A stretch of 64,000 bases of DNA from a virus. Taxonomy: Duplodnaviria > Heunggongvirae > Uroviricota > Caudoviricetes. The notes beneath the pieces were generated by a model, which saw only the letters and a list, made by a program, of their open reading frames with translations, was not told the DNA's origin and searched no databases. Positions 5,478 to 60,717 of the stretch are shown here, piece by piece (positions within the stretch are counted from its first letter, which is position 1; every line of letters starts with the position of its first letter). Position numbers and translations under genes: made by a program. The DNA lies in the IMG/VR virus record IMGVR_UViG_2802429224_000004, positions 31,285-95,284 of that record; one strand, written 5' to 3'.

Positions 5478-5494
5478 AGTGCTCTAATAAATTT
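5478..5494 (+). promoter_or_regulatory. C1 operator (Op51-like), 16/17 match to ATTGCTCTAATAAATTT
   Basis: AGTGCTCTAATAAATTT upstream of c4-icd-ant; position counted from the 5381 start codon. Confidence 0.6.
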
Positions 5495-5694
5495 GTATTT
5501 TTAAGTCGCGAATGCTATCTTTTCGCATCATATTGACCTTTTAATCGTTCAGGCTTATAGTTCCCGCCGTCGTAGCAAATTCTGCGACCGGGTTTAGCAG
5601 CCTGAATACTTACGCGGACAACCGCAGATTTCCGATATTGCGGTATTTTTGTGTCCGTAAACCACGTTACGCCCGAATTATGGTGGGGCGTGAT

Positions 5695-5770
5695 GGGGAG
5701 GCTTCGGCCTGCTGGTTTCGTAAGTGCCAGTCTGCTAACCCCGTCACGTCCTGCCACCTGTTTAGCAGCG
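5695..5770 (+). ncRNA. c4: c4-like antisense repressor RNA of immI (boundaries approximate)
   Basis: UUCG-capped hairpin (AGGC-TTCG-GCCT); loop sequence CGTAAGT is complementary to ACTTACG found both upstream (about 5600) and at the icd RBS (about 5791). Confidence 0.35.
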
Positions 5771-5807
5771 GGTCGCAGGTTGTTTATCAACTTACGAGGC
5801 CGTAACT

Positions 5808-6029
5808 ATGGTTAATGCCAATCCTTGCGCACGCCCAGAATTCATCTGGCGTTTCTATTCCTGTAAAAAACACCACTATCACTTCGTTATCGCAGCAACA
5901 GAAGACGAAGCACGCTCTCAATTGCCTGACGGCCCCTGCATTTTTACTGCCCGTTTTTCAACTAACTCGCGCAATTCACTTAGTTACTGGAACCTCCCCT
6001 TCTCTGCCGACGTTCAGGGGGGTTTATGA
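5808..6029 (+). CDS. icd: Icd-like cell division inhibitor
   Basis: 73 aa; overlaps ant start (ATGA); paralog of the ORF at 55150. Confidence 0.55.
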   Translation: MVNANPCARPEFIWRFYSCKKHHYHFVIAATEDEARSQLPDGPCIFTARFSTNSRNSLSYWNLPFSADVQGGL

Positions 6030-7072
6030 AAAAACCTCTCGTCACCCGTAATGAAATAGCCGAAGCGATCGCCCTGCATACAACCTGTATGCCGACACGG
6101 GAGATCCCCGGCGCAATTGCCAACTATTTCATGATAACCAGGCGTTTTTATACCCGAACAGATAAGGCTGTGATCAACAGGCTACTGATAGCCGAGATCA
6201 GGGATTATTTGATTAAACAAGGACGTCTACGTTACGCAACGGTGGCAGCAGAAATGAGAAAGGAGGCGCGCAGAATGACCGGTAATAATTTGAATGTTGA
6301 AAAACCAGCACCTGTTGCTTCAGCTACGCCATCACCAACTGTGAATGTTATCTCCAACACTGGAGACACAATCGACAGCCAGACACTGTTAAAGATGGTC
6401 AATGAAGCGCGTAAGTTATGTGGGGAACCAGAGGTTCGGAACAACAAATTCATCGAAAAAATACTCGACGAATTAGAAGGTGAGGACGGTTACACAAAAA
6501 GTGCAACCGTGCCGCCAGGTGGCGGTACGCCTATGGTTGTCATAACCATGACCTACAAACAAGCCCTGCGAGTCGCCGCGCGCGAGTCAAAAGCGGTCCG
6601 CCGTTCGCTGATCGACAAACTGGAAGAATTGCAGCAGGCAAACTCCCCTACCCCATCGATCCCCCAAACATTACCAGAAGCCCTACGCCTGGCTGCCGAG
6701 TTAGCAGAACAGAAAATGCAGTTGGAACAACAGCTGGTGGCCGCAGCCCCTAAAGTCGATTTTGCCGACCGGGTATCAGTGGCCAATGGAATCCTGATCG
6801 GGAACTTTGCAAAGGTCGTTGGACTTAAGCAAAACGCCCTTTTCTCATGGTTGCGCCAGAACGGCATTCTCATGGCTTTTGGAGCGCGCAAAAACGTACC
6901 GCGCCAACAGTACATCAACGCCGGGTATTTCACGGTGAAAGAAGTGGTGCTGGATGATGAAAATGGCTACCAGATACGGCTGACGCCCCAATTAACGGGT
7001 AAAGGCCAGCAGTGGTTAACTCGCAAGCTACTTGATGCTGGTTTGTTAAAACCAGTGGCGTCCTTGTCTTAA
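6026..7072 (+). CDS. ant1: Antirepressor Ant (Ant1/Ant2 type)
   Basis: 348 aa; C-terminal KilA-C/Ant domain (QTLPEALRLAAELAEQK...GKGQQWLTRKLLDAGLL) shared with KilA and the 55368 ORF. Confidence 0.7.
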   Translation: MKKPLVTRNEIAEAIALHTTCMPTREIPGAIANYFMITRRFYTRTDKAVINRLLIAEIRDYLIKQGRLRYATVAAEMRKEARRMTGNNLNVEKPAPVASATPSPTVNVISNTGDTIDSQTLLKMVNEARKLCGEPEVRNNKFIEKILDELEGEDGYTKSATVPPGGGTPMVVITMTYKQALRVAARESKAVRRSLIDKLEELQQANSPTPSIPQTLPEALRLAAELAEQKMQLEQQLVAAAPKVDFADRVSVANGILIGNFAKVVGLKQNALFSWLRQNGILMAFGARKNVPRQQYINAGYFTVKEVVLDDENGYQIRLTPQLTGKGQQWLTRKLLDAGLLKPVASLS

Positions 7073-9683: not shown

Positions 9684-9806
9684 TACAATCGCTGCGGGTG
9701 CTTGAGGCTATCTGCTTCAGGCATTACCCGAAAAGCAGATAGAAGAAAGCCCCAGATAACATTACGCGTCCGGCAAGACGCTTAACATTAATCTGAGGCC
9801 ACATCT

Positions 9807-10013
9807 ATGCTTAACATACGTAGATTAGCCTCTTACCGACCAAAAGGTCAAGGAGAAGCAGGCTATGAAGCAGCAAAAGGCGATGTTAATCGCCCTGATC
9901 GTCATCTGTTTAACCGTCATTGTGACGGCACTGGTAACGAGGAAAGACCTCTGCGAGGTACGAATCCGAACCGGACAGACGGAGGTCACTGTCTTCACAG
10001 CCTACGAATCTGA
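9807..10013 (+). CDS. mok-like overlapping reading frame of a hok-family locus
   Basis: 68 aa ORF overlapping the hok-like CDS in another frame. Confidence 0.3.
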   Translation: MLNIRRLASYRPKGQGEAGYEAAKGDVNRPDRHLFNRHCDGTGNEERPLRGTNPNRTDGGHCLHSLRI

Positions 10014-23851: not shown

Positions 23852-26112
23852 AAGAGCTGTGCTATGGATCTGTTTGCAGTGGAATTGAAGCCGCGAGTAT
23901 TGCCTGGGAACCGTTGGGTATGCGTCCGGCGTGGTTTGCTGAAATCGAGCCTTTTCCATCTGCCGTTCTTGCGCACCGCTGGCCCCATGTCGCCAACCTT
24001 GGCGACATGACAAAACTTGCCAAAAAAGTCCTGGCTGGGGAAATCGAATCCCCTGATGTGCTCGTCGGGGGAACACCTTGTCAGGCATTCAGTATCGCTG
24101 GATTACGTGGTGGGCTTGATGATGAGCGTGGCGCGCTAACTTTAAAGTATGTGGAGCTTGCAAATGCAATTGACGACAAACGGGCTGAGTCATTTCTCAA
24201 ACCAGCCGTTATCGTCTGGGAAAATGTCCCAGGAGTCTTGTCATCGGCAGATAACGCCTTCGGATGTTTCCTTGCCGGATTGGCTGGAGAAGATGCGCCA
24301 TTTGAACCAGGTGATCGACCTGAATCAGGAAAAAGTAACGCGTTCTGGCGGTGGGATGGCAAAACCGGTTGCCATGCTCCAAAGTGGCCGCAGTGTGGTT
24401 GTATTTATGGACCGCAGCGAAAAGTGGCCTGGAGAATCCTTGATGCCCAATACTTCGGAGTGGCACAACGACGCCGACGCGTGTTTGTTGTCGCAAGTGC
24501 TCGAACAGACCTCGATCCCGCAACGGTACTTTTTGAGTTCGAAGGCGTGCGCCGGAATATTGCGCCGAGCCGAAAAAAGAAGGAAATCACTTCCGCCATT
24601 ATTGCAAATGGCGCTGCAATCAGTGGCGAAAGCCTAAATCTATGCCTACACGCTGACATGCCACCCGGTATGAAATCGACGAAAGCCGTAAACGCTTTCA
24701 GGATGGCAGCATTTGGGGAATATATTGACGATGAAACCGCATCGACAGTAAAGGCAAGAGATTTTAAAGATGCCACTGACCTTGCCGTTTTTAGCAGCAC
24801 AGGAGCAGGTTTTTGGTCAGAAGGGCATGGTACATTGCGGGCACGTGAGCAAGAAAGCCATGAGCATCTTGTTACATTGGCTTTTCCTGAGCGTATGAGC
24901 GGTACACAACATGCTGCAACTAAGAATACTTCACCATCTCTAATGGCTAAAAATCCAACAGCTGTTTGCTATGAAGTAAGAAACGCAGAAGTAGCTGTCC
25001 GCCGTCTTACCCCTGTCGAATGTGAAAGGCTGCAAGGTTTTCCTGATGGGCATACGTTGATCCCGACGGAAAAGCGTAAAAAAGTTAATTCAGATGAACT
25101 GGCATACCTTCGCAAAAACTATCCTGATTTGAGCGAAGAAGAGGCCGCGATGCTTGCAGCTGACGGACCGCGTTACAAAGCGATCGGCAATAGTATGGCG
25201 ATACCAGTAATGCGCTGGATTGGCGATCGGATTACCAAGGCTGCATGTCGGCAGAATGAAGGGAATGAAACAAAAGAGCGAAAAGTTAAACCAGCGGCAG
25301 AATTCGAACGGTCCATATTCAAATGGGCTGGTGGAAAATTTGGTGTTCTGGAACAAATCTTTCGCTATTTGCCAGAAGGGAAGCGCCTGATTGAACCTTT
25401 CGTCGGTGGCGGAGCTGTCTTCATGAATGCCGGATACAAGGAAAATCTGCTAAATGATGTGAATGCTGACCTGATTAACTTTTACAAGACTTTGCAACGT
25501 GAGGAACGTTCACTTATCACTCTGGCGCATCGGTTTTTCCAGGACTACAACACACAGGAAGGATACCTGGCAGTACGGAATGCGTTTAACAAACAAGTCT
25601 ATGATGATTTACATCGCGCAGCGGCGTTTTTGTTCCTGAACCGACATTGTTTTAACGGATTGACGCGTTACAACCAAGCCGGTGAGTTCAATGTCGGTTA
25701 TGGGAAGTATAAAACTCCGTATTTCCCATTGCAGGAGATGGAAGCCTTCCTTGGTGCGGAAGGGCGTTCTGAGTTTGTATGTGGTGATTTTGCTGCGGTG
25801 ATTGAAGCTGCCGGAGAAGGAGATGTCATTTTTTGCGATCCGCCATATGAACCGCTTCCAAATACAGAGGGATTCACGAACTATTCCGGTCATGACTTTA
25901 AGTTTGAAGAGCAAAAACGCCTGGTGTCTCTGTTGACGGATGCTCATCGCCGAGGTGCAAAGGTTCTAATTACTAACAGTGGCGCGCCAAATATCAGAGA
26001 GCTTTATCATGACAGTGGCTTCAGAGTGGAACCTCTTTTTGCCAGACGTTCTGTGTCTTGTAAGGGGGACACTCGAGGTGTAGCTCATGACGTTTTAGGT
26101 ATATTGCTCTAA
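23848..26112 (+). CDS. dmt: Bifunctional DNA methyltransferase Dmt: N-terminal C5-cytosine domain, C-terminal Dam-like N6-adenine domain
   Basis: 754 aa; [12 protein letters not shown] (PCQ motif) and [11 protein letters not shown] (ENV motif); later [12 protein letters not shown]...EPFVGGGAV and DPPY. Confidence 0.8.
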
Positions 26113-26783: not shown

Positions 26784-26858
26784 GATGGTGTAGCTCAGCG
26801 GTAGAGCAGTTGGCTGTTAACCAACTGGTCGGTGGTTCGAATCCACCCACCATCGCCA
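26784..26858 (+). tRNA. tRNA-Asn (anticodon GTT)
   Basis: Hand-folded cloverleaf: acceptor GATGGTG/CACCATC, D-arm GCTC...GAGC, anticodon loop CTGTTAA, T-arm GGTGG-TTCGAAT-CCACC, CCA encoded. Confidence 0.8.
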
Positions 26859-28797: not shown

Positions 28798-28873
28798 GGC
28801 CCTTTAGCTCAGTGGTTAGAGCTGGCGACTCATAATCGCACGGTCACCGGTTCAAGTCCGGTAGGGGCCACCA
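28798..28873 (+). tRNA. tRNA-Ile2 / Met-type (anticodon CAT)
   Basis: Hand-folded cloverleaf; anticodon loop CTCATAA; T-arm ACCGG-TTCAAGT-CCGGT; close to E. coli ileX as remembered. Confidence 0.75.
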
Positions 28874-52133: not shown

Positions 52134-53327
52134 GTGACCTGGGACGATCACAAGAAGAATTTTGCTCGCCTGGCGCGAGATGGTGGTTACACCATCGCAC
52201 AATATGCCGCCGAGTTTAATCTCAACCCAAACACAGCACGTCGTTATCTCCGTGCCTTCAAAGAAGACAGCGGAACAGCGGACAGTCGCAAGCCAAATAA
52301 GCCAGTCAGGAAGCCACTAAAAAGCATGATCATTGATCACTCTAATGATCAACATGCGGGTGATTACATTGCGGCTGAAATAGCGGAAAAACAAAGAGTT
52401 AATGCCGTTATCAGTGCCGCAGTCGAGAATGCGAAGCGCCAAAATAAGCGCATAAATGATCGTTCAGATGATCATGACGTGATCACCCGCGCCCACCGGA
52501 CCTTACGTGATCGCCTGGAACGCGACACCCTGGATGATGATGGTGAACGCTTTGAATTCGAAGCTGGCGATTACCTGATAGATAACGTTGAAGCGCGGAA
52601 GGCCGCGCGCGCTATGTTGCGTCGTTCCGGAGCTGATGTTCTGGAAACCACTCTTCTGGAAAAGTCACTTTCTCATCTCCTTATGCTGGAGAACGCCAGG
52701 GATACGTGTATTCGCTTGGTGCAGGAAATGCGCGATCAGCAAAAAGACGATGATGAAGGAACTCCGCCTGAATACCGTATCGCGAGCATGCTTAACAGTT
52801 GTTCTGCGCAGATAAGCAGTCTGATCAACACAATTTACAGCATCCGGAATAACTATCGAAAAGAAAGCCGGGAGGCGGAAAAACACGCTTTGTCTATGGG
52901 GCAAGCAGGCATCGTTAAGCTGGCATACGAACGAAAGCGTGAAAATAACTGGTCTGTGCTGGAAGCGGCTGAATTCATCGAGGCGCATGGCGGGAAAGTG
53001 CCGCCCCTGATGCTGGAGCAAATCAAAGCCGATCTGCGTGCTCCTAAGACCAATACCGATGATGAGGAAAACCAAACAGCATCTGGCGCTCCATCACTTG
53101 AAGATCTGGATAAAATCGCGCGAGAACGGGCCGCCAGCCGCCGCGCTGATGCCGCATTGTGGATTGAGCATCGTAGAGAAGAAATTGCCGATATCGTCGA
53201 TACAGGCGGTTATGGTGATGTCGATGCGGAAGGCGCATCAAACGAAGCATGGCTTGAACAGGATCTGGACGAAGACGAGGAGGAAGACGAAGAAGTTACC
53301 CGCAAACTGTACGGGGATGATGATTAA
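52134..53327 (+). CDS. pacA: Terminase small subunit PacA
   Basis: 397 aa, same length as P1 PacA as remembered; contains the pac site. Confidence 0.75.
52326..52486 (+). other. pac: pac packaging site
   Basis: Two clusters of three (T/A)GATC(A/G) elements: GATC at about 52328, 52335, 52347 and 52458, 52470, 52481. Confidence 0.65.
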
Positions 53328-54811
53328 TGGCCAGAAGTTGCGTAACGGACCCTCGTTGGCGCGAGCTGGTGGCGCTATATCGTTATGACTGGATTGCGGC
53401 CGCTGATGTGTTGTTTGGGAAGACACCAACCTGGCAGCAGGATGAGATCATTGAGTCCACGCAGCAGGACGGCAGTTGGACAAGTGTGACCTCCGGCCAT
53501 GGTACTGGTAAGTCGGATATGACGAGTATCATTGCAATACTCTTCATCATGTTTTTCCCCGGCGCTCGCGTCATTCTGGTCGCTAACAAAAGACAGCAAG
53601 TCCTTGATGGTATTTTCAAATACATAAAGAGCAATTGGGCTACTGCTGTTAGCAGATTCCCGTGGTTGTCGAAGTATTTCATTCTTACAGAAACGTCTTT
53701 TTTTGAGGTGACTGGCAAGGGTGTTTGGACAATATTGATAAAGTCCTGTCGCCCCGGAAATGAGGAGGCGTTGGCTGGTGAACACGCCGATCATCTCTTG
53801 TATATCATCGACGAAGCGTCGGGTGTGAGTGATAAAGCATTCAGTGTGATAACAGGTGCGCTGACCGGTAAGGATAACCGTATTCTGCTTCTTTCCCAGC
53901 CTACGCGACCTTCAGGCTATTTCTACGATTCACACCACAGACTAGCTATTCGCCCGGGAAATCCTGATGGATTGTTTACTGCGATAATACTGAATAGTGA
54001 AGAATCTCCGCTTGTAGATGCAAAATTTATACGAGCAAAACTTGCGGAGTATGGCGGTCGTGATAACCCCATGTACATGATCAAAGTACGTGGTGAATTT
54101 CCCAAATCTCAAGATGGCTTTCTTCTTGGTCGTGATGAGGTTGAGCGGGCGACGCGGCGAAAGGTCAAGATTGCCAAAGGATGGGGCTGGGTTGCATGTG
54201 TTGACGTTGCTGGTGGCACAGGACGAGATAAGTCCGTTATTAATATCATGATGGTGTCCGGCCAGCGAAATAAACGCCGTGTAATCAACTATCGTATGCT
54301 GGAATACACAGACGTTACAGAAACGCAGTTAGCCGCCAAGATTTTCGCAGAATGTAACCCAGAACGGTTCCCGAACATAACCATAGCTATTGATGGCGAT
54401 GGCTTGGGGAAATCGACGGCTGATCTGATGTACGAACGCTATGGTATTACCGTCCAGCGTATCCGCTGGGGTAAAAAGATGCACAGCCGCGAAGATAAAA
54501 GCCTTTATTACGATATGCGCGCTTTCGCGAATATTCAGGCGGCAGAAGCTGTAAAATCAGGGCGTATGCGGCTTGATAAGGGGGCTGCGACTATAGAGGA
54601 AGCATCAAAGATACCGGTAGGGATAAATTCCGCAGGTCAATGGAAGGTGATGACAAAGGAAGATATGAAGAAAAAACTCAACCTGCACTCACCGGACCAT
54701 TGGGATACATATTGTTTCGCTATGTTGGCGAACTATGTTCCCCAGGATGAAGTGCTTAGCGTCGAAGACGAAGAACAGGTTGATGAAGCTCTGGCATGGC
54801 TTAATGAGTAA
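53327..54811 (+). CDS. pacB: Terminase large subunit PacB
   Basis: 494 aa; Walker A-like GHGTGKS; start overlaps pacA stop. Confidence 0.8.
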
Positions 54812-54814
54812 AAA

Positions 54815-54831
54815 CTTGCTCTAATAAATTG
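54815..54831 (+). promoter_or_regulatory. C1 operator, 15/17, heading the second immI-like module
   Basis: CTTGCTCTAATAAATTG, 4 nt after the pacB stop. Confidence 0.55.
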
Positions 54832-55025
54832 TGTTTTTTGACTGCCGATGTTACATTGAACCTGACCTCTTGCGCCTTGAGGCATTTTCGGTTTATGCTT
54901 ATCAGGCACCTCATTAAAACGGGTGCCGGGATTGGCCTCCCGCTTAAGTCTAAGGCGATACAGACGCCGCTCGCGTCTTTTTTTGTATCGGCGTACACGC
55001 ACACCTCTACAATGGTGGGCTGTAT

Positions 55026-55105
55026 GGGGCTACCTTCGGGTAGGCTGGTTACCTTGGACGCCAGTAAGGCCAACTCCGTACAGTCCACCGCCAGCAAGAT
55101 TGGTC
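55026..55105 (+). ncRNA. Second c4-like antisense RNA with a different targeting loop (boundaries approximate)
   Basis: CTACC-TTCG-GGTAG hairpin; loop CCTTGGACG is complementary (with G-U pairs) to GTCTAAGG upstream (about 54952) and CGTCTAAGG at the icd-like RBS (about 55131). Confidence 0.3.
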
Positions 55106-55149
55106 TCTTCTGCGGTGGTTACATACCAACGTCTAAGGAGGCTGCCATT

Positions 55150-55371
55150 ATGGCTACTACCCCTACCCCAGCTCACCCTGAATTCATCTGGCGCTTTTAC
55201 TCCTGCCAGAAACGCCACTATCACTTCGTTATTGCACCGACAGAAGATGAGGCCCGCTCTCAGCTTCCTGACGCCCCATGTATTTTCTCTGCCCGTTTTT
55301 CCACTGATTCACGCAATTCTCTCAGTTACTGGTGCCTCCCTGTTAATGCTTCTGCTCAGGAGGGACTATGA
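55150..55371 (+). CDS. Icd-like protein, second copy
   Basis: 73 aa; PEFIWRFYSCQKRHYHFVIAPTEDEARSQLPDAPCIF; same overlap (ATGA) with the downstream gene as the first icd. Confidence 0.5.
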   Translation: MATTPTPAHPEFIWRFYSCQKRHYHFVIAPTEDEARSQLPDAPCIFSARFSTDSRNSLSYWCLPVNASAQEGL

Positions 55372-56480
55372 GAACGTCATTAGTCACCCGTGAAGAAATG
55401 ATTGAGGCAATTGAACAGCACACTGCCTGTATCAGTACCAGGGATATACCAGGCGTTATAGCCAACTACTTCATGATCACCAAACAACTTTACCGGAGAA
55501 AGGACAAGAACGCGGTTCACCGTATCCTGCTGTCTGATATCCGCGAATACCTGCTCGAACAGGGTCATTTGAATTACGCAACCGTCGCAGCCGAAGCACG
55601 CAAGGAGGCACACAGAATGAAAGCAACTAACGTTAAATCAGAAAAAATTCATGCACCTTCAGTTCAGAAATCGGAGCTGGTGGTTGCTCAAAATCAGCCG
55701 GATGAAATTCCCGTTCTGGAATGGCAGGGAGTACGTGTCGTAACAACCGAAACTCTTGCTAAGGGGTACGGAACCGATGAAGGCAATATTCGTAAAAATT
55801 TGTCTTGCAACTCCGATCGCTTTGAAGAAGGTAAACACTACTTTCTTTTAACTGGTTCAAAATTAAAGGAATTTAAGAACAGAGTTACTTTTAGTAACTC
55901 TGTTGGTAAGAACGCCAGAAACCTCACTCTCTGGACGGAACGCGGCGCAGCCCGCCACGCTAAAATGATCGAAACCGATCAGGCATGGGCATTCTTTGAA
56001 AAACTGGAAGACAGCTACTTCCGGCAAAAAGAACAGCAACCGGTCGCAATCCCTCAGACGCTTCCCGAAGCTCTGCGCCTGGCTGCCGAACTGGCTGAAC
56101 AAAAGCAACTTCTGGAACAGAAAGCCCACCAGCTAAATCAGCAGCTGGTGGCCGCCGCTCCTAAAGTCGATTTTGCCGACCGGGTATCAGTAGCTAAAGG
56201 GATCCTGATTGGGAATTTTGCAAAGGTCGTTGGACTTAAACAAAATGCGCTGTTTGCCTGGTTACGGGAGAACGGCATTCTGATAGCGTCCGGCGGACGT
56301 AAAAATGTACCGTTCCAGCAATTCATCAATGCCGGGTATTTCACGGTGAAAGAAGTGGTGCTGGATGATGAAGATGGCTACCAGATACGGCTGACACCTC
56401 AGTTAACAGGGAAAGGCCAACAGTGGTTGACGCGTAAACTGCTCGATGCTGGCTTGTTAAAACCGGTGGCGGCTGAATAA
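55368..56480 (+). CDS. Antirepressor-like protein (shared Ant N-terminus, ORF6N-like middle domain, KilA-C/Ant C-terminal domain)
   Basis: 370 aa; ends and N-terminal 85 aa parallel the 6026 Ant, middle domain differs. Confidence 0.65.
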   Translation: MRTSLVTREEMIEAIEQHTACISTRDIPGVIANYFMITKQLYRRKDKNAVHRILLSDIREYLLEQGHLNYATVAAEARKEAHRMKATNVKSEKIHAPSVQKSELVVAQNQPDEIPVLEWQGVRVVTTETLAKGYGTDEGNIRKNLSCNSDRFEEGKHYFLLTGSKLKEFKNRVTFSNSVGKNARNLTLWTERGAARHAKMIETDQAWAFFEKLEDSYFRQKEQQPVAIPQTLPEALRLAAELAEQKQLLEQKAHQLNQQLVAAAPKVDFADRVSVAKGILIGNFAKVVGLKQNALFAWLRENGILIASGGRKNVPFQQFINAGYFTVKEVVLDDEDGYQIRLTPQLTGKGQQWLTRKLLDAGLLKPVAAE

Positions 56481-56512
56481 TGGAAGAATGCCCGGTTGAT
56501 GCCGGGCATAAT

Positions 56513-57364
56513 TTATTGCGCGCTTTCGGGGTTGTCGTTTACTGGCTGCCCCTTCTTAGTTTTACGGCTGCGCGTAACTGATGCGGCTGATTTGACCTTT
56601 TTCTCTTCGCGAGTGATGGCAATTTGTTTTTTTACGTTTTCAATATCTGCCATGCGATATATTTTCGCCTGTGGCCAGCGGTCGCAGATGATTGGCTCTA
56701 TAGAGTCGTAAATGCTAAATTTTGCTTTCTCAAACTCGCCATTGATGATGATCCCATCGCGGAGAGTTTCATCACAAATAAATACGCCACATAATGGGAC
56801 GTGATAACTAACTGATTTACCGCCATTATAGTTAGGGCTGCTGGAAATGTAGTGGACGCGGAGCATAGTCTCGCTAAAGCCGTGTACGCGCATACGGAAT
56901 TTCTCATCTTCCGGATACTGCATCATTAGCTCTTTCGTTGTTTCTAGGTTCTCTATGTACTTTGCGCTATGTTCGCTAATGCCTGCGCTTTTTTGAATTC
57001 GAATATCTCTGTCGATCAGATGGATAATACGACCGGCAGTCATATTTACGCTATTAACAGCCTCCGTCCGATAAGTCGTTACTTTCCGCACACCACGAAG
57101 GATGTTAGGCACTGGATATAAAATAGTCTTTGGGATATTGAGGTCTGGGTACTGTTCCAGTTCCCGCGCCATTAAAGTCCATTTATCAATTTCAGCCTGA
57201 ATGCTGTCCGTTTCTTTGAACGGCAGAACGACAACCGGGCGAACAGGACGACCGTCGCTGGCGGCATCAACGTGTTGGGCGCGTGCAACAGCTTTTTTTA
57301 GAAAGAGATCCCTGAAGCTGACGAACTCCTGGTACAGTTGTTCGCCGTAGACATAATTTATCAT
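56513..57364 (-). CDS. c1: C1 repressor of lysis (immC)
   Basis: 283 aa, same length as P1 C1 as remembered; convergent with pacB side, followed upstream by coi and operators. Confidence 0.85.
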   Translation of the reverse strand: MINYVYGEQLYQEFVSFRDLFLKKAVARAQHVDAASDGRPVRPVVVLPFKETDSIQAEIDKWTLMARELEQYPDLNIPKTILYPVPNILRGVRKVTTYRTEAVNSVNMTAGRIIHLIDRDIRIQKSAGISEHSAKYIENLETTKELMMQYPEDEKFRMRVHGFSETMLRVHYISSSPNYNGGKSVSYHVPLCGVFICDETLRDGIIINGEFEKAKFSIYDSIEPIICDRWPQAKIYRMADIENVKKQIAITREEKKVKSAASVTRSRKTKKGQPVNDNPESAQ

Positions 57365-60043: not shown

Positions 60044-60060
60044 ATTGCTCTAATTGATTG
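60044..60060 (+). promoter_or_regulatory. C1 operator-like site (Op2-type), 14/17, upstream of ref
   Basis: ATTGCTCTAATTGATTG with an overlapping second half-site. Confidence 0.45.
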
Positions 60061-60150: not shown

Positions 60151-60717
60151 TTGCCATATGAAAACAATCGAACAAAAATTGAACAGTGCCGCAAGTGGCA
60201 GAAGGCAGCCAGAGAACGAGCGATCGCTCGGCAACGGGAGAAGTTGGCTGATCCGGCCTGGCGAGAATCTCAATATCAGAAAATGCGGAATACTATCGAC
60301 CGCCGTATCGCTAAACAGAAAGAGCGCCCACCAGCCAGCAAAACGCGGAAAAGCGCGGTAAAAATAAAATCTCGTGACTTGAAGGGACGAACACCGACGG
60401 CGGAGGAACGGCGCATAGCCAATGCTCTTGGCGCTCTCCCCTGCATTGCCTGCTATATGCATGGAGTAATATCTGAAGAGGTGTCTCTGCACCATATCTC
60501 CGGTCGTACCGCGCCTGGTTGTCACAAAAAGCAATTGCCACTTTGTAGATGGCACCACCAGCATGCAGCACCGGCTGAAGTAAGAGAAAAATACCCCTGG
60601 CTGGTCCCTGTTCATGCCGATGGTGTGGTTGGAGGCAAGAAAGAATTCACCTTGCTGAACAAGTCAGAGATGGAGTTGCTGGCTGACGCCTATGAAATGG
60701 CAAACATCATGCACTAA
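60151..60717 (+). CDS. ref: Ref, HNH-type RecA-dependent nuclease; N-terminus appears frameshifted in an A5 run
   Basis: HNH-like C-terminus (CIACYMHG...HH...CRWHH); the ATG at 60158 reads MKTIEQK in the +1 frame and would join the ORF if the A-run at 60174-60178 were A6, giving 186 aa. Confidence 0.6.
   Translation: MPYENNRTKIEQCRKWQKAARERAIARQREKLADPAWRESQYQKMRNTIDRRIAKQKERPPASKTRKSAVKIKSRDLKGRTPTAEERRIANALGALPCIACYMHGVISEEVSLHHISGRTAPGCHKKQLPLCRWHHQHAAPAEVREKYPWLVPVHADGVVGGKKEFTLLNKSEMELLADAYEMANIMH

Follow-up and report, generated by a model that had tools for sequence, protein, structure and literature searches.

A putative second immI-type operon with its own antisense RNA specificity between pacB and c1 of P1-like phage-plasmids

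We analyzed a stretch of 64,000 nucleotides (IMG/VR record IMGVR_UViG_2802429224_000004, positions 31,285 to 95,284; hereafter the window), which is DNA of a P1-like phage-plasmid, and found that positions 54815-56480, between the genes pacB and c1, probably constitute a functional second immI-type operon (module 2), in addition to the canonical immI region of the same molecule (module 1). On the comparative evidence we put the probability of this interpretation at about 0.7. An earlier examination of the letters of the window alone, here called the sequence-only reading, had proposed two antisense-controlled antirepressor circuits of distinct specificity under one C1 repressor. The anatomy of the module, the covariation of its RNA elements, its operator and the selection acting on its genes all support that proposal, and a single C1, with 97% identity to the C1 of P1, is encoded in the window. 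We infer C1 control of the module, RNA processing, orthogonality in vivo and an action of its antirepressor against C1.

The immunity of P1 is the textbook case of a system in which one antisense RNA, c4, sets the heteroimmunity between P1 and P7. According to the work of Citron, Schuster, Biere, Riedel and Heinrich, the c4 RNA of P1 is reportedly processed from the operon's own transcript and is said to pair with the a2 and b2 sites and to block icd translation, and Ant synthesis is thereby reportedly prevented through translational coupling and premature termination. The same work is said to show that Ant1/Ant2 antagonise C1 and that the heteroimmunity of P1 and P7 is due to the difference between their c4-target pairs. 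The parts of module 2, with the two genes that flank it, are as follows.

53327-54811, plus strand: pacB, convergent with c1
54815-54831, plus strand: C1 operator-like 17-mer CTTGCTCTAATAAATTG, 15 of 17 positions identical to ATTGCTCTAATAAATTT, counterpart of P1 Op51/Oc4
54829-54857, plus strand: putative P51a/P2c4-like promoter, TTGTGT-17-TACATT, positional homologue of the annotated P1 P2c4
54870-54899, plus strand: putative P51b/P1c4-like promoter, TTGCGC-18-TATGCT, aligning with TTGACC-17-TATAGT of module 1 and P1
54906-54985, plus strand: IsrK-type leader RNA (Rfam isrK, RF01394, match 54906-54983)
54932-54938, plus strand: target site a1, TTGGCCT, in the leader
54948-54955, plus strand: target site b1, GTCTAAGG, in the leader
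55008-55095, plus strand: c4-2, a class II antisense RNA gene (Rfam C4, RF01695)
55100-55141, plus strand: target region in the icd2 mRNA, with a2 TTGGTCT at 55100-55106 and b2 CGTCTAAGG at 55130-55138
55150-55371, plus strand: icd2, 73 aa (NCBIfam NF033153, phage_ICD_like, 49.8 bits)
55368-56480, plus strand: ant, 370 aa, Ant1-like (Pfam domains)
56488-56509, plus strand: terminator-like hairpin between the stop codons of ant and c1 (terminator scan)
56513-57364, minus strand: c1, convergent with pacB

Module 1, at the classical site, served for comparison, and its leader is of the P1 type (c4-a1b1 leader, RF03163).

5478-7072, plus strand: canonical immI (module 1)
5478-5494, plus strand: operator, from the C1 operator search
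5533-5561, plus strand: P51b, TTGACC-17-TATAGT
5594-5614, plus strand: leader target sites a1/b1
5676-5761, plus strand: c4 (Rfam C4, RF01695, 70.8 bits)
5762-5796, plus strand: downstream target sites a2/b2
5808-6029, plus strand: icd (icd1)
6026-7072, plus strand: ant, 348 aa

The gap between pacB and c1 measures about 1.7 kb in the window, against 24 bp between the two stop codons in reference P1, where the junction holds no module. Sequence comparison showed that module 2 is absent from P1 and P7, and P7 and phiW39 align to the pacB-c1 query solely at its pacB and c1 ends. The module departs from the annotated immI in its location, pacB-c1 instead of the interval between sim and kilA-repL. 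In its composition it agrees: the sequence-only reading had described a full parallel of immI here, and all of its parts were present where it had placed them, matching the annotated P1 operon part for part when both modules were aligned to the immI regions of P1 and P7. This agreement extends to the operator with 15 of 17 matching positions, to a UUCG-capped c4-like hairpin, to an icd-like open reading frame overlapping an Ant-like gene by ATGA, and to an ORF6N-like domain in the middle of the second Ant, each of which was borne out by the searches described below. The same reading had missed the IsrK-family leader upstream of c4-2.

The mismatches of the operator CTTGCTCTAATAAATTG are confined to its end positions, 1 and 17, and the 15-nt core is exact. 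Over the window, 15 C1 operator-like sites were found at three or fewer mismatches, compared with 0.42 expected by chance. The other sites include 7626, 22581, 26103/26114, 36393, 42158, 57459, 57923, 58006 and 60044; the pair at 26103/26114 overlaps on opposite strands and resembles a bivalent operator, and the site at 60044 lies just upstream of ref. The operator of module 2 lies upstream of c4 and overlaps the first of two tandem promoter candidates: the -35 hexamer TTGTGT shares 3 nt with it, which is the same overlap that Oc4/Op51 has with P2c4 in P1. The P51a/P2c4-like promoter is presumed to be repressed by C1 and the P51b/P1c4-like promoter is presumed to be constitutive. The -10 hexamer of the latter ends 7 nt ahead of position 54906, where the match to the IsrK model begins. 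The operator is invariant among 37 unique module-2 leaders, and the whole operator-promoter stretch is almost so.

The leader scored 60.8 bits with the isrK model (gathering score 50) and ends in an intrinsic, Rho-independent terminator, with a stem at 54962-54978 followed by a T-run in the terminator scan. It stands directly upstream of the C4 match, which begins 25 nt downstream of the isrK match. The c4-2 RNA matched the full C4 model at 75.9 bits (gathering score 45), and its predicted fold (-41.6 kcal/mol, z = -3.75) has the canonical shape of the family, consisting of a long outer stem, the UUCG-capped hairpin, a second hairpin that carries the b' loop, and a single-stranded a' element. 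Its internal stems are 100% paired, with 11 compensatory pairs. The c4 loci were located by a stem and loop pattern anchored on icd and were then checked against Rfam; a MAFFT alignment of five c4 RNAs was set aside as the basis for a covariance model, the class II stems being out of register in it. The annotation of this stretch in public genomes is of a different kind. In RefSeq/PGAP the isrK and c4 stretch bears the label of an incomplete "ash family protein" pseudogene, and no noncoding RNA is annotated there; the label was seen at L083 796-1026 and L087 23570-23887, corresponding to about window 54895-55125. An NCBIfam search with one reading frame of the leader/c4 stretch did not reproduce the "ash family" match, and the pseudogene looks like a misannotated RNA locus.

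The two protein genes complete the parallel. The icd2 product is 80% identical to that of icd1 over 66 aligned residues, and icd1 also matches the phage_ICD_like family. The stop of icd2 and the start of ant overlap as ATGA (55368-55371), and a nested, in-frame Ant2-like start preceded by AAGGAGG, which would give a 287-aa Ant2, is found at 55617, codon 84, as in the ant2 of P1. In module 2 the Ant protein exceeds the Pfam cut-offs for both ORF6N (PF10543, residues 116-200, 71 bits, E = 1e-19) and ANT/KilAC (PF03374, residues 258-359, 109.4 bits, E = 1.5e-31), whereas the canonical 348-aa Ant has the ANT domain only and no ORF6N. Between the two Ant proteins of the window, identity falls from 60% in the N-terminal part to 18% in the middle and reaches 84% in the C-terminal part. 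The NCBIfam search returned no family for either of them, and a search of solved structures found no relative of the Ant protein. In a subgroup of module 2 with b GCAAAAGG and a TTGAGAC, icd starts with GTG and not ATG (loci L010, L011, L015-L018, L022, L050, L057, L060, L061, L065).

The P1 record annotates four targets of c4, namely the pair a1 and b1 on its upstream side and the pair a2 and b2 on its downstream side, where b2 lies at the icd ribosome-binding site. An alignment of P1, P7, both modules of the window and RCS47 showed that each c4 has two recognition elements, the hairpin loop b' and the single-stranded a', and that each of them is complementary to both an upstream and a downstream site. 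In module 1, CGTAAGT pairs with ACTTACG at 5608-5614 and 5790-5796, and CTGCTAA of the a element pairs with TTAGCAG. In module 2, the b' loop is CCTTGGACG (55052-55060), of which CCTTGGAC(G) pairs with GTCTAAGG at 54948-54955 and with CGTCTAAGG at 55130-55138, with one G.U pair each; the a' element AGGCCAA (55067-55073) pairs with TTGGCCT (54932-54938) and with TTGGTCT (55100-55106). Pairing thus involves 7-9 bp per site at a1/b1 upstream and at a2/b2 by the icd ribosome-binding site, where b2 overlaps the Shine-Dalgarno sequence AAGGAGG (55135-55141). The loop-target pairs that the sequence-only reading had given for both modules, upstream and at the icd ribosome-binding site, are correct and their complementarity holds. 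Its statement that the antisense loop differs between the modules is also right, but the difference is not confined to the loop, since the a element differs too. The specificities compared are listed here.

P1: a target TTGACAG, b target GTTAGTG
P7: a target TTAGCAG, b target GATTGTG
Window module 1: a target TTAGCAG, b target ACTTACG
Window module 2: a target TTGGCCT upstream and TTGGTCT downstream, b target GTCTAAGG
RCS47 (pacB-c1): a target TTGAGAC, b target GTCAAAGG

Module 1 itself has a combination of neither P1 nor P7, because its P7-type a site (TTAGCAG) is joined to a b site, ACTTACG, that is found in neither. Among the relatives, class I comprises at least six b types (GTTAGTG, GATTGTG, GTACATG, ACGAATG, ACTTACG and ACTTGTG).

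To compare the recognition elements across relatives, IMG/VR was scanned in a protein-guided manner with the Ant sequence, which yielded 78 loci. A c4 hairpin was present ahead of every icd with enough upstream sequence, except at locus L044. At that locus, a deletion joins pacB (about window 53910) to about window 55126; it removes the 3' end of pacB, the leader and c4 and keeps icd-ant, and would leave ant without a cis-encoded c4. From IMG/VR, P1, P7 and RCS47 we collected 57 unique leaders, which fall into two classes: class I has a P1-type leader with five b types and two a types, and class II has an isrK-type leader with three b types and three a types. Complementarity of a' and b' to a1, b1, a2 and b2 extends over 7-11 nt in each of the 57 leaders, and it spans 8 b types, 5 a types and 13 combinations. 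The distance from the end of b2 to the ATG of icd is 8 nt in class I and 11 nt in class II.

The pairs were counted formally in 22 class II leaders, two Stx phages included. Standard pairs were found in 882 of 882 base-pair cells, and 20 of the 42 pairs showed changes on both sides. Compensatory pairs were seen in each of the intermolecular helices (b'-b2, 4 of 8; a'-a2, 5 of 7; b1-b', 4 of 8; a1-a', 5 of 7). In 500 shuffles, the observed percentage paired, the observed numbers of pairs and of cells with changes on both sides and the observed covariation score were never reached; the number of further pair types did not stand out (410 and 413 of 500 shuffles). When the 3' partner was slid by 1-3 columns as a control, only 27-50% of the cells were paired. 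Among the 37 unique module-2 leaders, variation is concentrated in the six recognition elements, in compensated c4 stems and in leader spacers. At the pacB-c1 site the ratio of nonsynonymous to synonymous substitution rates (dN/dS) is 0.03-0.23 for icd2 and 0.14-0.29 for ant, indicating purifying selection, and ant is of full length in 44 of 50 loci; a few loci carry insertion sequence (IS) insertions, truncations or deletions. Together, the covariation, the near-invariant operator and promoters, and the purifying selection argue strongly that module 2 is a working antisense circuit and not a relic.

We also examined predicted duplex energies for each recognition element. For c4-1 of module 1 they range from -8.3 to -11.1 kcal/mol on its cognate sites and from -3.9 to -4.9 kcal/mol on the sites of module 2; for c4-2 the cognate range is -8.6 to -13.9 kcal/mol and that on module 1 is -5.5 to -9.2 kcal/mol. 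The two c4 RNAs are thus predicted to be orthogonal, more clearly in one direction than in the other. Duplex energies calculated over the whole downstream region were noisy, short GC-rich matches giving -8 kcal/mol, and serve as a rough guide only; reliance was placed on contiguous complementarity and covariation instead.

Between modules 1 and 2, DNA identity is 55-65% over operator, promoters, leader and c4, and 75% in icd. The segment 54907-55159, which holds the leader, c4 and the ribosome-binding site, shares about 80% identity with isrK-C4 cassettes found in Stx-converting lambdoid phages, among them P13374, phi191, VT2phi_272 and F039. In these phages the RNA pair directly precedes a Rha-like regulator and there is no icd, yet icd2 begins with the same three codons, ATGGCTACT, as the lambdoid gene. 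The operator-promoter stretch has no counterpart in the Stx phages, where the match begins at query position 71-76. Since its leader and c4 are of the lambdoid isrK-C4 type, module 2 is by its sequence a mosaic and not a simple duplicate: operator and promoters of P1, leader and c4 of a lambdoid cassette, and icd and ant of P1, with an ORF6N middle in Ant. Two variants of the c4 scaffold occur at pacB-c1, the window type, which is nearest to that of the Stx phages, and the RCS47 type, with a 21-nt insert and compensated stems.

The comparison with the closest known systems reflects this composition. With the immI of P1 and P7, module 2 shares the order and spacing of its parts, the operator over the first -35, the a1/b1 sites before C4 and the a2/b2 sites after it, as well as a 73-aa Icd, the ATGA overlap, the codon-84 Ant2 start and the KilAC C-terminal domain. 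It differs in standing at pacB-c1 and not at sim-kilA, in a leader and c4 of another sequence class (isrK-type leader, 65% c4 identity), in two new recognition elements, in the ORF6N middle of Ant and in its weaker promoters. With the lambdoid isrK-C4 cassettes (Gifsy-1 IsrK/STnc1160/AnrP; Stx phages P13374, phi191 and F039) it shares the terminator, the c4 scaffold and the rule of a/b covariation, whereas those cassettes have a Rha-like or antirepressor gene directly downstream, no icd, no P1 C1 operator and other specificities (b AATCAAGG; a TTGCTAC or TTAGGAC). The module of RCS47 occupies the same pacB-c1 junction but has another specificity and another c4 stem variant. In the Gifsy-1 cassette, IsrK supplied in trans raises translation of the downstream antirepressor gene anrP 139-fold and induces Gifsy-1, and a processed RNA of about 80 nt complementary to IsrK, STnc1160 ("orf45 prime"), has been described (PMC4825925). 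That study shows Hfq binding and trans-activation by IsrK for Gifsy-1 and compares the cassette with P4 CI/seqA, not with P1 c4. IsrK and STnc1160 appear to correspond to the a1b1-leader/c4 pair within one family of cassettes, and the trans-activation in Gifsy-1 could be a titration of the c4-like RNA.

The module is common. In PLSDB, 268 pacB-c1 junctions were filled and 314 were empty and of the P1 type, so that about 46% of 582 intact junctions are filled; a filled junction was also found in 249 of 5426 complete Escherichia coli genomes. Sequences resembling icd occur at 1018 places in 664 plasmids. Insertions of the same kind are present in RCS47, pTZ20_1P, JL22 and vB_EcoM-673R5, those of RCS47, JL22 and vB_EcoM-673R5 being at pacB-c1. 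RefSeq already annotates the module genes as "Icd-like" and "KilAC antirepressor". One sentence of PMC6906374 mentions [quoted passage not shown], as in RCS47, and one sentence of PMC6799933 mentions a second antisense RNA/icd region in the D6-like plasmid pYU39_89; the c4 RNA, its targets, the operator and the differing specificity are not identified in those passages. In the searchable literature we found no analysis of the RNA, targets, operator or specificity of a second immI-type module. The sequence-only reading had named, as grounds for giving up its proposal, routine presence of the module at this place in P1-family genomes together with an already described function; the routine presence proved real, but no described function was found in the literature. 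Module 2 is, as far as its sequence tells, a widespread and hitherto uncharacterised second immunity module with a new RNA specificity.

Some plasmids carry still more such modules. The complete 98.6-kb P1-like plasmid pOkiPb01689_2 (NZ_AP042542.1; L086/L087), which is close to the window and whose module 2 region is 96.2% identical to that of the window, has five C4 RNAs and five icd-ant pairs.

pOkiPb01689_2, pacB-c1: b GTCTAAGG, a TTGGCCT
pOkiPb01689_2, ref site: b GTACATG, a TTAGCAG
pOkiPb01689_2, glycosyltransferase/baseplate site: b GTACATG, a TTGACAG
pOkiPb01689_2, after lyz: b ACGAATG, a TTGACAG
pOkiPb01689_2, canonical, next to kilA: b ACTTGTG, a TTGACAG

No two of these five modules have both elements in common, and some share one. 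In other P1-like contigs, modules with a class I c4 and an ORF6N-type Ant were found at fixed sites where the window has none: they replace ref (window 60151-60717), fill window 31514-31573 or lie beyond window 61549, and these positions appear to be recurrent insertion sites. Contigs with class I modules at such extra sites are L005, L007-L009, L012, L014, L019, L021, L025, L032 and L039, and further L071, L073-L075 and L078-L080. In the other multi-module contigs, the sole pair sharing both elements is the tandem copy of L062, in which a second module 2 directly follows the first. Overall, with the cassettes of Stx phages counted, there are at least 10 b types and 7 a types, which would recombine freely. 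These observations raise the prospect that P1-like phage-plasmids keep arrays of 2-5 distinct c4-icd-ant circuits at five or more fixed sites, each with a two-part RNA "barcode" (7-9 nt per part), in a combinatorial arms race of heteroimmunity; to this wider proposal we give even odds.

If module 2 works as its parts suggest, the weak constitutive P51b-like promoter would transcribe the leader in a lysogen. Many transcripts would end at the terminator (54962-54985) and yield a short IsrK-like RNA, and transcripts that read through would be processed to a c4 RNA of about 80 nt. The b' and a' elements of this RNA would pair with a2/b2 of its own mRNA and cover the icd ribosome-binding site. The ATGA overlap couples ant translation to that of icd, so that synthesis of Icd and of the nested Ant1/Ant2 alike would be prevented and the prophage would stay repressed, with C1 on the operator that overlaps the P51a-like promoter keeping transcription low. 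Since the two modules differ in both recognition elements, silencing by each c4 should be restricted to the ant of its own module; the lysogen would make two c4 species and hold two ant genes silent, and an incoming relative would be neutralised only if all of its ant genes were matched. The a1/b1 leader would probably act, by analogy with IsrK of Gifsy-1, as a decoy that titrates c4 when transcription rises, giving a sharp switch, and derepression of the operator-controlled promoter would raise mRNA and decoy together, in a positive feedback.

Several observations weigh against this account. The c4-2 RNA has residual affinity for the mRNA of module 1 (-9.2 and -8.8 kcal/mol, from an interrupted helix and from a GGCC match of 4 bp), so complete orthogonality is only a prediction, and some modules in multi-module plasmids share one of their two elements. 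Both promoter candidates are weak, each matching 7 of 12 consensus positions, and the promoter scan called neither of them, so that their assignment depends on positional homology only. Finally, the middle domain of the ORF6N-type Ant is unrelated to that of P1 Ant (18% identity), and for this reason the protein may not act on C1.

The last point leads to a different view of the module, in which the ORF6N-type Ant targets another repressor or DNA site, for example in co-resident lambdoid prophages or other P1-like variants, and serves cross-induction or warfare between elements. The exchange of the middle domain and the derivation of the leader and c4 from Stx-phage-type cassettes, which control Rha-like regulators, are in line with it. 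However, both Ant proteins have the nested Ant2 start and share their N-terminal part (60%) as well as their KilAC C-terminal part (84%), and the module stands under a C1 operator and adjoins c1; we consider this view unlikely. A larger, though still minor, likelihood attaches to the possibility that the leader and not c4 is the key regulator, a short RNA which in trans would open the icd ribosome-binding site and activate the synthesis of Icd and Ant under particular stresses, as proposed for IsrK of Gifsy-1, and would make the module an induction trigger and not an immunity determinant. The leader does belong to the IsrK family and has the same terminator, and the activation of anrP and induction of Gifsy-1 by IsrK in trans (PMC4825925) provide a precedent. 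This possibility does not contradict the c4 model: what counts in IsrK are the equivalents of a1/b1, which are complementary to c4, so that the activation can be read as titration of c4. Moreover, a2 and b2 covary with c4 just as strictly, which a model with an activator only leaves unexplained.

The antisense block on a growth-inhibiting peptide is also reminiscent of type I toxin-antitoxin systems, Icd is a cell division inhibitor according to the P1 annotation, and up to five copies occur per plasmid. The modules might accordingly be addiction or abortive-infection cassettes, with Icd as toxin and c4 as antisense antitoxin, whose copies stabilise the plasmid prophage or kill on invasion. 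We regard this as improbable, because icd is always coupled to a full-length ant under purifying selection and because the diversification of the recognition elements fits immunity specificity better. Decay is the least probable explanation. A non-functional duplicate or recombination scar would be in keeping with the absence of the module from P1 and P7 and with the damaged copies at a few loci, but the conservation of 42 base pairs at 100% with compensatory changes, the purifying selection, the invariant operator/promoter region and the occurrence of the module in hundreds of plasmids effectively refute it.

Elsewhere in the window we noted a sok antitoxin RNA (9696-9870, 115.7 bits), implying a hok/sok-type locus, and tRNA genes at 26784-26855 and 28798-28870; both are ordinary for P1-like plasmids.

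The preferred reading, that of a second antisense-controlled immunity operon, has two consequences for superinfection. A resident prophage with both modules would protect against superinfecting relatives of either specificity, and as an infecting phage it would bring at least one ant that a lysogen of single specificity cannot silence, so that immunity would be broken as in P1/P7 heteroimmunity. If the reading is true, natural P1-like plasmids, which occur in about 5% of complete E. coli genomes and are often the carriers of resistance genes, would commonly run at least two circuits in parallel, each with its own RNA address. This would call for different models of superinfection immunity, of prophage induction by incoming relatives and of phage-plasmid competition, would account for the modules being recombination hot spots, and would make the immunity between a lysogen and a phage readable from sequences of 7-9 nt. 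It would also tie the IsrK/STnc1160 system of Salmonella to the P1 c4 paradigm and provide naturally validated orthogonal antisense-target pairs for synthetic biology. The main interest lies at the level of the system, in the arrays of distinct c4 circuits in P1-like plasmids: if these exist as proposed, more barcodes would mean immunity to more relatives and the breaking of immunity in more lysogens, and the arrays would form a natural library of orthogonal antisense regulators.

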